5,014 nt of DNA, taken from the IMG/VR virus record IMGVR_UViG_2778261447_000019, one strand, 5' to 3'. How positions within the stretch are numbered: the stretch's first letter is position 1; each line of letters begins with the position of its first letter. Of the stretch, positions 1,857-5,014 are shown piece by piece. The DNA comes from a virus. Taxonomy: Duplodnaviria > Heunggongvirae > Uroviricota > Caudoviricetes. The position numbers and the translations under genes were made by a program. The notes beneath the pieces were generated by a model. The model was not told where the DNA came from, made no database searches, and saw only the letters and a program-made list of their open reading frames with translations.

Positions 1857-2214
1857 GGCGCACCCCCTGAATAACCTGATATCCGCAACTGGTCAGCAAT
1901 TCGATAAATTCCGGCAGTGTGCCGAAACAGCAATCATCACGCAGCCGTTCGCAGGATACCTCGACGCCGTTTTCGTAGTGACTCACCATACATCCGGTAA
2001 AATGCAGATCATCATCGTGATGGCTCGTTGACGGCTTAATCAGTCGCGCACGTTCCGCCAGTTCCAGCAATGCTTGAACGCTTCCGGCAATTGCACCATC
2101 CGGCAGGTGATAATTACGCACTATGCGCCCGTTCTCCACATTGACGAGTAGCTGTCCGGTAAATTTCTCACGAAACTGAACGCGGTTAAGATCGGTAAGT
2201 GACAGGTTAATCAT
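1846..2214 (-). CDS. Hypothetical His/Cys-rich protein (122 aa from the ATG at 2214; the track's 161-aa version starts at a GTG at 2331)
   Basis: The ATG at 2214-2212 is preceded by a strong SD (AGGAGG, 6-nt spacer); the longer GTG-initiated form has no SD and would overlap the upstream gene. The C-terminal half has His65, His66, His71, His79 and Cys75, Cys88, Cys95, Cys96, Cys110 (SHHDDDLHFTGCMVSHYENGVEVSCERLRDDCCFG), suggesting a metal-binding site. Confidence 0.6.
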   Translation of the reverse strand: MINLSLTDLNRVQFREKFTGQLLVNVENGRIVRNYHLPDGAIAGSVQALLELAERARLIKPSTSHHDDDLHFTGCMVSHYENGVEVSCERLRDDCCFGTLPEFIELLTSCGYQVIQGVRHVQ

Positions 2215-2404
2215 GGCACACCTCCTGACGAATACGGGCGGCGAATACAGCGACACAACCGGACGGGCAACGGTTACGCGCTTCGCGTTCCGTCCAGGCG
2301 GTGACGTGGATAATTTGAGATTCTCCGGCACTCAGTGCCAGAAAACGCCACATAAAGGCGGTTTGTGTGTGCGCTAGTCGTGGGGTATGCTGTGTTCCAG
2401 CCAT
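2207..2404 (-). CDS. Hypothetical small protein (66 aa), first gene of the operon
   Basis: Internal ATG of the long 2207..3169 ORF at 2404-2402, preceded by AGGAG with an 8-nt spacer (aacAGGAGtaacgattATG). The long upstream extension is serine/cysteine-rich junk antisense to a better gene. The C-terminus contains CPSGC...CH. Confidence 0.5.
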   Translation of the reverse strand: MAGTQHTPRLAHTQTAFMWRFLALSAGESQIIHVTAWTEREARNRCPSGCVAVFAARIRQEVCHD

Positions 2405-2435
2405 AATCGTTACTCCTGTTAACGGTTTGGTTAGA

Positions 2436-2467
2436 CGCCCCGTTACTGCCGCAAACAGTTCGGGGCG
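2436..2467 (-). promoter_or_regulatory. Leader hairpin in the 5' UTR of the minus-strand operon (7-bp GC stem CGCCCCG/CGGGGCG with an 18-nt loop)
   Basis: Perfect inverted repeat CGCCCCG (2436-2442) and CGGGGCG (2461-2467), 32-63 nt upstream of the first ATG of the operon. No U-tract follows on the minus strand, so it is not a classical terminator. Confidence 0.3.
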
Positions 2468-2493
2468 TTGTCGTTTACATCCTCTTACTGAGG

Positions 2494-2569
2494 TGTGATT
2501 TAAATTAAATTCAACTGAATCACAGATCAAGTATTTTTTGTGATTCTTTTTTGTGTATACTGAATCACA
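2494..2569. promoter_or_regulatory. Divergent promoter/operator region with four alternating TGTGATT / AATCACA half-sites
   Basis: TGTGATT at 2494-2500 and 2539-2545; AATCACA at 2518-2524 and 2563-2569. An 11-bp perfect direct repeat ACTGAATCACA occurs at 2514-2524 and 2559-2569, 45 bp apart. The sites form inverted pairs (GAATCACA-N14-TGTGATTC) in an AT-rich stretch between divergent start codons at 2404 (minus) and 2592 (plus). A TATACT -10-like hexamer lies at 2556-2561. Confidence 0.5.
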
Positions 2570-2591
2570 TCTTTTGTTTAGGAGAATGCAC

Positions 2592-2897
2592 ATGGCAAAA
2601 AACACTATCAACGACAAATCAAAACAGATTTCAATTCGTATCCCACATGATGCTTTTGATGGCATGGAATCCGTAAAACTGGACGGCGAAAGCAACGCCG
2701 GATTCATAGTAACCGCCATGCGTGGTGAGATCGCCCGCCGCCAGGCAGAAGGAAGAGGAGAAAATCCCCTGGTTTCTTCGCTCGATGCACTGGCGCAGGT
2801 GGAAAAAATCGGTGTCAAAGCTGCCGAGGAGATCGGGCAACTCGTCGCCGTTGCGCGTGAAGAACTCCAGCGGCGCAAAGCCAAAGAACAGGAATAG
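2592..2897 (+). CDS. Putative ribbon-helix-helix (CopG/Arc-like) DNA-binding regulator, 101 aa
   Basis: The ATG at 2592 is preceded by GGAGA (2581-2585) with a 6-nt spacer; the track's longer ORF from 2553 lacks an SD. The N-terminus KQISIRIPHDAFDGMESVKLD...NAGFIVTAMRGEIARR has a beta-strand/helix/helix pattern typical of RHH repressors, and the C-terminus is a charged helix. An intrinsic terminator follows directly. Confidence 0.65.
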   Translation: MAKNTINDKSKQISIRIPHDAFDGMESVKLDGESNAGFIVTAMRGEIARRQAEGRGENPLVSSLDALAQVEKIGVKAAEEIGQLVAVAREELQRRKAKEQE

Positions 2898-2928
2898 CCC
2901 ACCAGCAAGCCAGCACACTGATCACATT

Positions 2929-2956
2929 GGCCACCGTGACAGGTGGCCTTTTCTTT
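2929..2956 (+). terminator. Rho-independent terminator of the RHH regulator gene
   Basis: GGCCACC (2929-2935), loop gtgaca, GGTGGCC (2942-2948), followed by TTTTCTTT (2949-2956). Confidence 0.6.
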
Positions 2957-2973
2957 GCCCGTTATCCGGCAAT

Positions 2974-3003
2974 TGTGGCGCTTCGCCACACGGTTGATAT
3001 AAT
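2974..3003 (+). promoter_or_regulatory. Candidate sigma70 promoter with an extended -10 (TGaTATAAT), overlapped by a 7-3-7 palindrome
   Basis: TG at 2995-2996 and a consensus TATAAT at 2998-3003. A perfect palindrome TGTGGCG-ctt-CGCCACA at 2974-2990 occupies the -35/spacer position, which is an operator-like arrangement. Confidence 0.4.
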
Positions 3004-3009
3004 TCCCCT

Positions 3010-3080
3010 GCTCAGATTCATTTTTTGCGCAGCAGGTAAATTGTTCAGAAAGGCGGCTCCTTATCGGGGCCGCTTTTTTT
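3010..3080 (+). ncRNA. Candidate small RNA (~70 nt) bounded by the extended -10 promoter and a strong intrinsic terminator
   Basis: No plausible ORF with an RBS. It contains a 6-bp stem CCTGCT/AGCAGG (3007-3012 and 3031-3036), an AU-rich linker, and the terminator hairpin. It lies between the regulator gene and alpA. Confidence 0.3.
3053..3080 (+). terminator. Rho-independent terminator (8-bp stem with one G-U pair, followed by T7)
   Basis: GCGGCTCC (3053-3060), loop ttatc, GGGGCCGC (3066-3073), then TTTTTTT (3074-3080). Confidence 0.65.
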
Positions 3081-3196
3081 ATGTCTGAAAAACCGCGATT
3101 TTGTTGTTTTTCAGTTTCACAAGGCCGAACGAAGCCCCGCCCCTGTTCGGGCGTATATCCAGTCTTCATGGTTAAATCTCTGTATTAGTGGATGGG

Positions 3197-3223
3197 TGGC
3201 GGCTGTGTGCCGCCAGTCTTTTT
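3197..3223 (+). terminator. GC hairpin with T5 tract abutting the alpA stop codon (possible convergent or bidirectional terminator)
   Basis: TGGCGGC (3197-3203), loop tgtgt, GCCGCCA (3209-3215), then gtcTTTTT (3216-3223). On the minus strand the hairpin sits immediately after the alpA stop but is not followed by a U-tract. Confidence 0.35.
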
Positions 3224-3410
3224 AGTGAACTGCCTCGCAGCTTTCCTTCCATGCCAGAACTTCGGATAAAGACCAGCCAACGGAACGACCGCCCAGCTTA
3301 CGCCGTGATGGGAATTGTCCGGCCTTTTCCAGGCGGTAGCGGCATGAGCGGCTAAGGCCTGTTAGCTTTTCGCATTCTTTTTCACGTATAAACCGATCAG
3401 TGCTTAACAC
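3222..3410 (-). CDS. alpA: AlpA-family phage transcriptional regulator / excisionase-like protein (62 aa)
   Basis: GTG start at 3410-3408, preceded by aGGGGG with a 5-nt spacer. The sequence KLTGLSRSCRYRLEKAGQFPSRRKLGGRSVGWSLSEVLAWKE matches the AlpA/Vis-type helix-turn-helix signature (TG.SRS..YR....G.FP...KLG.RSVGW...EV..W). It sits immediately downstream of an integrase, as in CP4-57 and P4-like elements. Confidence 0.85.
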   Translation of the reverse strand: MLSTDRFIREKECEKLTGLSRSCRYRLEKAGQFPSRRKLGGRSVGWSLSEVLAWKESCEAVH

Positions 3411-3784: not shown

Positions 3785-5014
3785 TTATTTTCTTCTGGCT
3801 ACTGGTAGCGTGGTTACGTTTTCATGTGCTCCCGCCAGTATCTCCAACCGCTCCACCCACATATCCAGCGCATTGCGTTTCGCATCCAGATAACGGGAAT
3901 GATTATAAACTCGCTGCATCCCTGGCATCTGGTGGCCTGTAAGCTGCTCCACGACGTGAGGATCCACGCCTAAATCGTTCAGCATGGTTGTAAAGGTGCG
4001 CCGGATGTCATGCAGTGACCAGTGAGGGTGTTTAAGCCTCCTGTGCACTAATCTGCCGTACTGCGACACGCTGGTTTCCTGTTTCACTTCCCCCAGCAAT
4101 AAGCCCGTGTGCCTGTTCTGCTCCACCAGCTGCGTGATGAACGGCAGTATCGCTTCCGGTATGGGCCGGAATATGGCTACCTTCGTTTTGCTGTGCTCCT
4201 TCGGAACGGTCCAGAGCATTTCGGTAAAATCCCACTCGCCGATCTCCGATAACCTCAGTTCTACTGTCCGGCATCCGAAAACAATCAGGAGGCGGATTAG
4301 TGCGACGTAGTAAGGGGAAAATATTTTTTTGTCCAGTGCCTGCAATAATTCGCCCAGTTCTCTGGTGCTTAAGACACGTTCGCCTATATCCGGTTTTTTC
4401 CCAACGTCAGCCACACTCATATCATCAAGAACGTTGCTGATTGCATAGCGCCGCTTCCGGCAGAACTTAAGCGCCTGTTTGCATGTCTGTAGCAGGAACC
4501 CGGCGGAAACAGGGGCTTGCTTTGCCACCCGATCAAAACAGGCCAGCCAGTGCCGTAGCTCGCATTTATCCAGCGGCATAGGGCCAATGTGCTGTATTAC
4601 GTGATTATTTAGCCGCTTTTTCAGTGGGTCATAATCCACACGGTTTTCCTTTGCGTACGACTCAAGCCAGTAGGTGAGCGCATCGCCAACCGTTACAGGC
4701 TTTAACGCTTCCTGTACGGTGTAATTCATCTCATGACGTGGATTTTTCCCCTCAGCCAGCCATGCGCGACACTGGGCGGCTTTTTCCCTGGCTGATTTCA
4801 GGCTCAGATCAGGATAATTTCCCAGCTTAATGCGTTCCGGTGATGCCCCCCTTCCCGTTCCGGCCCTGTAAGTGAAATACCAGGTTAAAAGGCCGCTGGT
4901 TGAATGCCTGACGGTCAGGTTTCCACCGTCATTAAGAAAGACTGTTTTTTGGGCGGGTGTGCCGTTGATTTTCCTTAGCTGTGTATCACTCAGTTTGTTA
5001 AGTGCTCTGCGCAT
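3785..5014 (-). CDS. int: Tyrosine recombinase, P4-type phage integrase (409 aa)
   Basis: The N-terminus LSDTQLRK...DGGNLTVRHSTSG...WYFTYR is an arm-binding-like domain typical of P4-family integrases. The C-terminal catalytic box has HDIRRTF (H-x-x-R) and RVYNHSRY (catalytic Tyr). The start codon occupies the last three bases of the window, so the true 5' end and the adjacent att site or tRNA cannot be verified. Confidence 0.9.
   Translation of the reverse strand: MRRALNKLSDTQLRKINGTPAQKTVFLNDGGNLTVRHSTSGLLTWYFTYRAGTGRGASPERIKLGNYPDLSLKSAREKAAQCRAWLAEGKNPRHEMNYTVQEALKPVTVGDALTYWLESYAKENRVDYDPLKKRLNNHVIQHIGPMPLDKCELRHWLACFDRVAKQAPVSAGFLLQTCKQALKFCRKRRYAISNVLDDMSVADVGKKPDIGERVLSTRELGELLQALDKKIFSPYYVALIRLLIVFGCRTVELRLSEIGEWDFTEMLWTVPKEHSKTKVAIFRPIPEAILPFITQLVEQNRHTGLLLGEVKQETSVSQYGRLVHRRLKHPHWSLHDIRRTFTTMLNDLGVDPHVVEQLTGHQMPGMQRVYNHSRYLDAKRNALDMWVERLEILAGAHENVTTLPVARRK

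Follow-up and report, generated by a model that had tools for sequence, protein, structure and literature searches.

The stretch of DNA analysed here (5,014 nucleotides, referred to as the window) is the left arm of a phage-inducible chromosomal island (PICI) of E. coli. Its gene set, with integrase, Phage_AlpA, Icd-like and DUF4222 genes (Table 1), is that of a PICI and not of a P4 satellite, the family brought up in an earlier sequence-only reading of this DNA. The features by which these islands are recognised were found, namely a co-oriented integrase, AlpA-family regulator and replication genes and a fixed chromosomal site. The related islands in O157:H7 and CFT073 occupy roxA-pepT-potA. 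The closest relatives, among them the O157 and CFT073 islands, are PICIs or capsid-forming PICIs, and in these the islands carry on with genes for a RepA helicase or primase, SSB, PerC and capsid proteins. For EDL933, a capsid-forming PICI has been described that harbours int, alpA and rep together with capsid and packaging genes (bioRxiv 10.1101/2022.09.08.507074), and the genes of the O157 island agree with this description.

Table 1. Genes of the window and features of the candidate small-RNA unit (positions refer to the window unless an accession is given).
Feature	Position	Strand	Remarks
DUF4222 gene	864–1163	−	Pfam DUF4222
Icd-like gene	2207–2404	−	NCBIfam Icd-like
YlcI/YnfO-family gene	2592–2897	+	
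T1	2929–2956	+	Intrinsic terminator of the ylcI/ynfO-family gene (2592–2897), terminator scanner; stem GGCCACC-N6-GGTGGCC with T-rich tail
Conserved segment TTGCC-N8-GGCAA(T)	2955–2973	+	About −55 to −37 from predicted start
Palindrome TGTGGCG-ctt-CGCCACA	2974–2990	.	Perfect 7-3-7; arms 2974–2980 and 2984–2990, 7 nt each, 100% complementary, 3-nt gap; centre about −28 from predicted start
Extended −10, TGaTATAAT (TGATATAAT)	2995–3003	+	Without usable −35
Predicted transcript, 5′ part	3010–3052	+	About 43 nt, without conserved secondary structure
T2	3053–3080	+	Intrinsic terminator; stem 3053–3060/3066–3073, strands GCGGCUCC/GGGGCCGC, one G-U pair, loop UUAUC; U7 at 3074–3080
AlpA-family regulator	3222–3410	−	Pfam Phage_AlpA
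Integrase	3785–5014	−	Pfam Phage_integrase
CFT073 counterpart of predicted start	NZ_CP058222.1, about 3,008,212	+	Predicted RNA about 3,008,212–3,008,282; −10 at 3,008,197–3,008,205

Between the ylcI-family gene and alpA, the sequence-only reading had listed two terminators, a palindrome and an extended −10 element. All of these features were recovered at their positions. The −10 element is the sole TGNTATAAT on either strand of the window. In dinucleotide shuffles TGNTATAAT occurred with a mean of 0.12 per window, and at least once in 22 of 200 shuffles (11%), so that the −10 in isolation is only mildly unlikely by chance. A single perfect 7-bp inverted repeat is at chance level, as 3.5 of them are expected per window; between 2880 and 3240 there are four against 0.2 expected, a number that was equalled in 1 of 200 shuffles. 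The case for the unit is carried by comparative evidence and not by the single sequence.

The predicted start, G3010, is located 7 nt past the −10, and the distance from the −10 to the plus-strand-specific T2 is about 50 nt. From G3010 to the T-run there are 71 nt, in which neither an ATG nor a Shine-Dalgarno sequence was found, in agreement with the distance of about 70 nt without a credible ORF that had been claimed before. The sole plus-strand ORF listed across the unit has a TTG start and 53 codons, and it runs through both hairpins. A 35-codon ORF at 3081–3188 was rejected, as it lacks a Shine-Dalgarno sequence and is part of the DNA that is specific to one context. We also rejected a leader or attenuator, because no plus-strand gene is present downstream. 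The terminator scanner called T1 in the window; it did not list T2 there, and the homologous hairpin was called in relatives. When 3010–3080 was folded, T2 dominated the structure (−27.1 kcal/mol, z = −4.0), and in a fold of 191 nt the segment at 2955–2973 was predicted to form a small hairpin.

Conservation of the −10 was determined in an unbiased set of 14 copies, consisting of the window, five BLAST-sampled genomes (L001, L128–L131), six further ones (L252–L257) and two metagenome contigs identified by a terminator pattern; the −10 played no part in the retrieval of any of them. About 30 copies from viral contigs were used for other features only; they were excluded from the −10 comparison because their retrieval pattern contains this element. 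GTTGATATAAT was invariant in all 14 copies: none of its 9 columns vary, compared with 63 of 152 (41%) overall, and it is the longest invariant run in the region. Directly 3′ of the −10, four of six positions vary. The −10 of the CFT073 island is identical to that of the window. In the upstream segment (2955–2973), 5 of 17 columns vary.

Both hairpins are retained as well. In relatives, the T1 hairpin is kept via paired changes (GGCGACC/GGTCGCC and GCGACC/GGTCGC) and wobble changes, and in the sequences compared T1 is found only in islands that also have the promoter. T2 exists as 15 hairpin variants, and each of them folds with 8 bp in the stem. Its changes comprise three wobble-compatible ones and one double change from C-G to A-U; three singleton variants each break one pair, and the loops vary freely. 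There are two architectures, one with a 5-nt loop and one with a GNRA tetraloop, separated by compensated indels, and the U-tail is U7 in the window type and UUUUUGUU in the other type. Most copies of the module (L128 2593–2620, L259 7096–7123 and others) were seen to have the GNRA tetraloop as GCAA, GUAA or GGAA. Owing to its G-U pairs, T2 gives a weaker hairpin when read from the minus strand, and it is not followed by a U-run there, which makes it a terminator of the plus strand. A restart of transcription between T1 and T2 would explain why two terminators are under selection on this strand at a distance of 100 nt.

In the RNAalifold consensus, columns 1–38 are unpaired and the terminator alone is paired. 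The unpaired 5′ columns hold invariant runs, with an invariant core around AGG-u-AAUuGUUC. Folding and covariation analysis in related islands, which had been proposed as a check, thus showed terminator hairpins kept by compensating changes and an unpaired 5′ part.

The stretch 2957–3085 matches 1090 of 5426 complete E. coli genomes, and at least 80% of it is present in 289. With the promoter half (2950–3030) as query, we found 289 of the 5426 genomes, 287 of them with at least 80% query coverage; these copies lie at 343 places, all of them chromosomal. As one unit, the module is present in about 5% of the complete E. coli genomes, with the CFT073 island among them, while about 800 further genomes have the 3′ block (from 3027) alone and no promoter similarly placed. 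When species-representative genomes were searched with AlpA as the anchor, 3 loci were obtained, of which only the one from Shigella is close. The sequence-only reading had held that poor conservation and lack of structure would speak against the candidate. The unit is conserved (289 of 5426 genomes) and its terminator is structured; the lack of structure applies to the 5′ part.

Homology between islands breaks sharply at 3026/3027, so that a breakpoint of homology or recombination falls inside the predicted transcript. The first 17 nt (3010–3026) go with a promoter cassette that is confined to one island class and consists of T1, the TTGCC-N8-GGCAA segment, the palindrome, the −10 and these first 17 transcribed bases. 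In the sequences compared, T1 and the promoter were either both present or both absent. From 3027 (GCGCAGCAGG...) to the terminator, the block is shared by every island class, and in most related islands homology begins only at 3027, leaving the 3′ block and terminator without promoter. In such promoter-less classes, exemplified by the islands of O157 E32511 and ATCC 25922, the block lies about 100 nt past the last plus-strand ORF and looks like the terminator region of a plus-strand operon. The only promoter-like match upstream of it (TTGCCC-17-TATCAT) is of a kind found at chance frequency. On the other side, at least five unrelated contexts were distinguished in the DNA that follows the terminator on the right within the cassette-bearing class. 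This change of right-hand DNA between islands means that the module is tied to the ylcI side and that its terminator marks its exact end.

Since the 3′ block is found without a promoter, the terminator and its flank also exist as a plain plus-strand operon end, and the conservation of 3027–3080 could be explained by shared ancestry. In the cassette-bearing islands, too, 3053–3080 might then be just the ancestral terminator of the ylcI operon, part of a tandem terminator or insulator, with TGaTATAAT being incidental or giving a functionless short transcript. We regard this as unlikely. It accords with the finding that block and terminator directly follow plus-strand ORFs without a promoter in most related islands, with a −10 that alone is only mildly improbable, and with the failure to find a target within the island (see below). 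However, the promoter-bearing operon already has the conserved T1, and a second selected terminator is needed only if transcription restarts. Furthermore, GTTGATATAAT is the longest invariant run of the region, and gain or loss of T1 goes along with that of the promoter.

The palindrome behaves differently from the −10. Of 42 distinct variants, 11 have it in perfect form and 10 have it with one G-T; most of the others are more degraded, and in 7 of the 42 it is replaced by a different dyad, TGGTC-N5-GACCA, which does not track with the ylcI gene type or with the alpA-side context. With 10 of 17 columns varying in the 14 unbiased copies it is the most variable upstream segment, although a dyad of some sort at about −28 is common among the variants. 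With so few perfect copies, the case for a conserved operator is weak, and the palindrome is the weakest point of the sequence-only reading. What stands of the regulated small-RNA gene suggested there is the independent small unit, with its invariant −10, kept terminators and cassette; regulation via the palindrome is not supported. By eye, CRP-like (TGTG-N9-CACA, with the wrong spacing) and IHF-like matches were noticed.

The changes in the palindrome are mainly C-to-T in the 3′ arm, and plus-strand G-U pairing is kept in 17 of the 31 non-perfect variants. This would fit a transcribed hairpin 5′ of 3010, as expected if the region were a 3′-UTR element of the ylcI-side mRNA, i.e. a stabilising hairpin or a processed small RNA supplied by read-through of T1, with the internal promoter being secondary. 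The same block as an approximately 100-nt 3′ UTR in the promoter-less islands points in this direction too. Nevertheless, T1 is a good terminator under selection, the −10 does not vary, and a mutational bias could account for the excess of G-U-compatible changes; we consider the 3′-UTR reading improbable. A role of the palindrome, be it as an operator or as a hairpin of read-through RNA, is conceivable, but none is supported.

The minus strand of the region is part of a 320-codon open frame (2207–3169). A coding function of this frame is extremely improbable, even though it is open across the entire region and PGAP annotation of several genomes includes a CDS or pseudo-CDS at this place. Most module-bearing islands have unrelated sequence in place of the DNA with its ATG (3169), the differences between the window and O157 are mostly non-synonymous in this frame (judged by eye), the frame crosses three hairpin terminators and runs antisense through ylcI, and the predicted protein sequence is of low complexity. 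The frame ends as the Icd-like gene, and PGAP labels pieces of it as pseudo 'Icd-like', 'ash family' or hypothetical. The long antisense 'Icd-like' pseudo-CDS over this region is probably a recurrent annotation artefact.

Taken together, the comparisons lead us to favour, with modest confidence, the reading that 2995–3080, within the regulatory region of the PICI, is a gene in its own right and encodes a non-coding RNA of about 70 nt. That a discrete RNA is made at all is, in our estimate, somewhat more likely than not. In this gene, a sigma-70 extended −10 would recruit RNA polymerase, with a start near G3010, and transcription would end in the U-run at 3074–3080. The predicted product has a conserved unstructured 5′ portion of about 43 nt followed by a terminator hairpin with a U-tail, an architecture typical of small RNAs that act by base pairing. 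In the promoter-less islands, the block would be the 3′ untranslated end of the plus-strand operon, and an equivalent RNA, if any, would arise by processing; for the O157 type it would extend from about GCGCAGCGGG to the terminator.

We then asked if the candidate corresponds to a known RNA. Rfam 15 gave no family match, neither for the whole window at E ≤ 1 nor for 2380–3240 at E ≤ 10 with lax filters, and the C4/CI RNA family was among those rejected in both searches. The best overlapping scores were 15–20 bits, compared with gathering thresholds of 44–100, and were driven by the terminator. A match to isrD (22 bits vs 37) merely reflects similarity to terminator T1, and a REP element was rejected because it has only TTATCCGGC in common and no partner arm is present. 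Six 15-mers of the candidate RNA had no match in a full-text literature search. In a phage collection we found no homologue, only chance matches of 22–24 nt at E ≤ 10.

Several described small RNAs could be set aside by their location. Esr41 is encoded on another island (SpLE1, O-island 43), the approximately 71-nt EcOnc33 is located in the lambdoid prophage Sp6, and sRNA-17 of E. coli K1 is 193 nt long and lies in a mEp460-like prophage. The Pas small RNAs have been described as prophage-encoded and likely Stx-phage-derived, and are probably not the candidate. The Hfq crosslinking catalogue of O157 Sakai holds no EcOnc entry assigned to Sp7, Sp8 or SpLE2 (PMC4104026) and no small RNA in this island (PMC4104026 Table S2); the Sakai island is probably of the promoter-less form, like that of the O157 strain we examined. 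In the papers on PICIs and capsid-forming PICIs that were consulted, no mention of a small RNA was found (PMC6092414, bioRxiv 10.1101/2022.09.08.507074). The unit is thus a credible candidate for an unannotated and apparently undescribed small-RNA gene.

In all annotated relatives, the unit is located 3′ of the plus-strand ylcI-side gene and is convergent with the alpA-type gene. The gap between T2 and the alpA stop codon measures 142 nt in the window and about 24 nt in the relative L128. In the window this interval (3081–3221) is non-coding, with about 85% identity to the O157 island, and contains hairpins at 3085–3114 (9 bp, perfect), 3125–3150 and 3197–3215. The sequence 3197–3222 resembles a third plus-strand terminator, the T-run of which is missing from O157. 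In CFT073, the module and the alpA-proximal region are separated by 180 additional nt (L259 7126–7310). On the minus strand, this insert resembles what is left of a BRO-N-type gene and continues into the small-RNA terminator; other islands (L130) have an intact BRO-N gene at that place.

On the icd side, a strong GC stem (ACGCCCCG...CGGGGCGU) was noted in the leader of the Icd-like gene (2405–2475, minus strand), with CUAACCAA and a Shine-Dalgarno sequence after it. The leader had no Rfam match; the stem is kept in the O157 island (L002, about 4425–4460), where the loop differs. In the divergent ylcI/icd region at 2505–2580, repeated TGAATCACA / TGTGATTC motifs have an operator-like appearance and may be a binding place of the YlcI-family protein. 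In relatives, good sigma-70-like promoters were noted on the minus strand 5′ of the icd operon, with TTGACG-18-TATAGT in the CFT073 island (L259 6424–6395) and TTGACG-18-TACATT in L128 (2128–2099). No equivalent was listed in the window.

Next we considered possible pairing partners. Outside its own locus, the best duplex of the candidate RNA in the window reached −28.1 kcal/mol, compared with a shuffle mean of −29.9. An exact-complement scan of six islands gave only matches of 9–10 nt, which are not at homologous places in relatives. A 10-nt A/U match in the window, at the helicase start region, is not conserved in relatives. The operon and alpA leaders, in which the sequence-only reading had suggested looking for complementarity, held nothing exceeding shuffled controls. 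Thus, no partner with above-chance complementarity was found within the island. Generic sequence traits of Hfq-type small RNAs are present in the candidate, namely a Rho-independent terminator with a U-tail and an accessible conserved pairing region.

If the RNA acts by base pairing, our best guess is that it does so through the conserved region from 3027 (GCGCAG..GGUWAAUUGUUC). The sole certain complement would be a minus-strand transcript reading from alpA towards the icd-replication operon, on which the RNA might act as a cis-antisense brake on RNA exiting alpA, in the manner of lambda OOP on cII. It has been reported that expression of a downstream ORF in PICIs is AlpA-dependent (PMC6092414). 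In L128, the interval from the alpA-type gene to icd is free of terminator-like sites on the minus strand, and those in the window and in CFT073 are weak and at chance frequency. An AlpA-dependent downstream ORF and the lack of a consistent minus-strand terminator would allow such an OOP-like brake. On the other hand, an apparent separate icd promoter in the CFT073 island and in L128 weakens the read-through model, and the RNA does not reach the alpA coding sequence. Action in trans, on a target of the host or of a helper phage, would be at least as likely as the cis-antisense brake. Overall, action in trans is a tentative possibility and action in cis on read-through RNA rather an unlikely one; the remainder of our estimates goes to a functionless or merely insulating unit.

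The unit has a notable position in E. coli PICIs, with alpA, the activator of induction, on one side and the replication operon on the other. AlpA is the activator of PICIs, and its expression is turned on by the helper phage (PMC6092414). How PICIs stay silent was called unclear by the authors who defined these elements, as was the existence of a repressor in Gram-negative PICIs (PMC6092414). It is conceivable, though improbable, that the ylcI-family gene and the small RNA are this missing quiescence device. A constitutive antisense RNA and a strong convergent promoter would then block leaky transcription from alpA into icd, replication and packaging genes, and this block would be overrun only once the helper phage switches alpA on. 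If true, this would be RNA-based immunity in a satellite family without a known repressor. If the RNA acts in trans, it would be one more horizontally spread regulator in E. coli networks. Small RNAs on mobile elements are already a known kind, and another one would by itself be unsurprising.

Among known systems, lambda OOP RNA is a 77-nt cis-antisense RNA against cII. By analogy, OOP and the candidate would both be short RNAs with their own constitutive-looking promoter and an intrinsic terminator, encoded just 3′ of, and convergent with, a key activator gene (cII and alpA, respectively). This convergence makes both complementary to RNA reading out of that gene. The OOP-type layout was found at the level of sequence only, with the same arrangement in all annotated relatives, and there is no sequence relationship between OOP and the candidate. 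Moreover, OOP extends into the 3′ end of the coding sequence of cII, whereas the candidate stops 142 nt before the alpA stop (about 24 nt in some relatives), so that pairing is possible only with a 3′ UTR or read-through RNA.

DapZ and MicL are 3′-UTR small RNAs with an internal promoter. The candidate resembles them in that the block would be an operon 3′ UTR in some islands and have its own promoter in others, sharing its terminator with a former mRNA end. Unlike in DapZ and MicL, the extra terminator T1 would fully uncouple the RNA from the upstream gene.

With the CI RNA of P4 and the C4 RNA of P1/P7, the candidate has in common that it would be a small RNA in the regulatory region of a satellite or phage bearing an icd-type gene. 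P1 couples c4 RNA with icd, and in the window the opposite strand has an Icd-like gene, preceded by a structured leader, at a distance of 600 bp. An immunity RNA of this type, pairing with sites in the icd-operon leader and blocking icd expression, is nevertheless very improbable here. CI and C4 arise by processing of an operon leader and control this operon by pairing with sites in the leader itself, whereas the candidate is encoded on the plus strand, opposite to the icd operon as the sequence-only reading had recognised, with its own promoter and −10, bracketed by two plus-strand terminators. The analogy with P4 CI RNA drawn in that reading is not supported: no covariance model matched, C4 included, even at E ≤ 10 on the short region, no matching target sites were found, complementarity to the leader is not above chance, and the element is a PICI and not P4.

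Finally, AsxR and AgvB are short Hfq small RNAs encoded by prophages of EHEC (PMC4104026). Like the predicted RNA, they are 50–70 nt long, lie on mobile elements convergent with their neighbours and end in an intrinsic terminator (PMC4104026). They occupy a 'moron' site in the late region of lambdoid prophages and are Hfq-bound, whereas the candidate is located in a PICI between alpA and the ylcI-family gene and is absent from the published list (PMC4104026). The two kinds also share a conserved 3′ part combined with a 5′ part that varies between copies, of 14–18 nt in AsxR and AgvB and of 17 nt (3010–3026) in the candidate.
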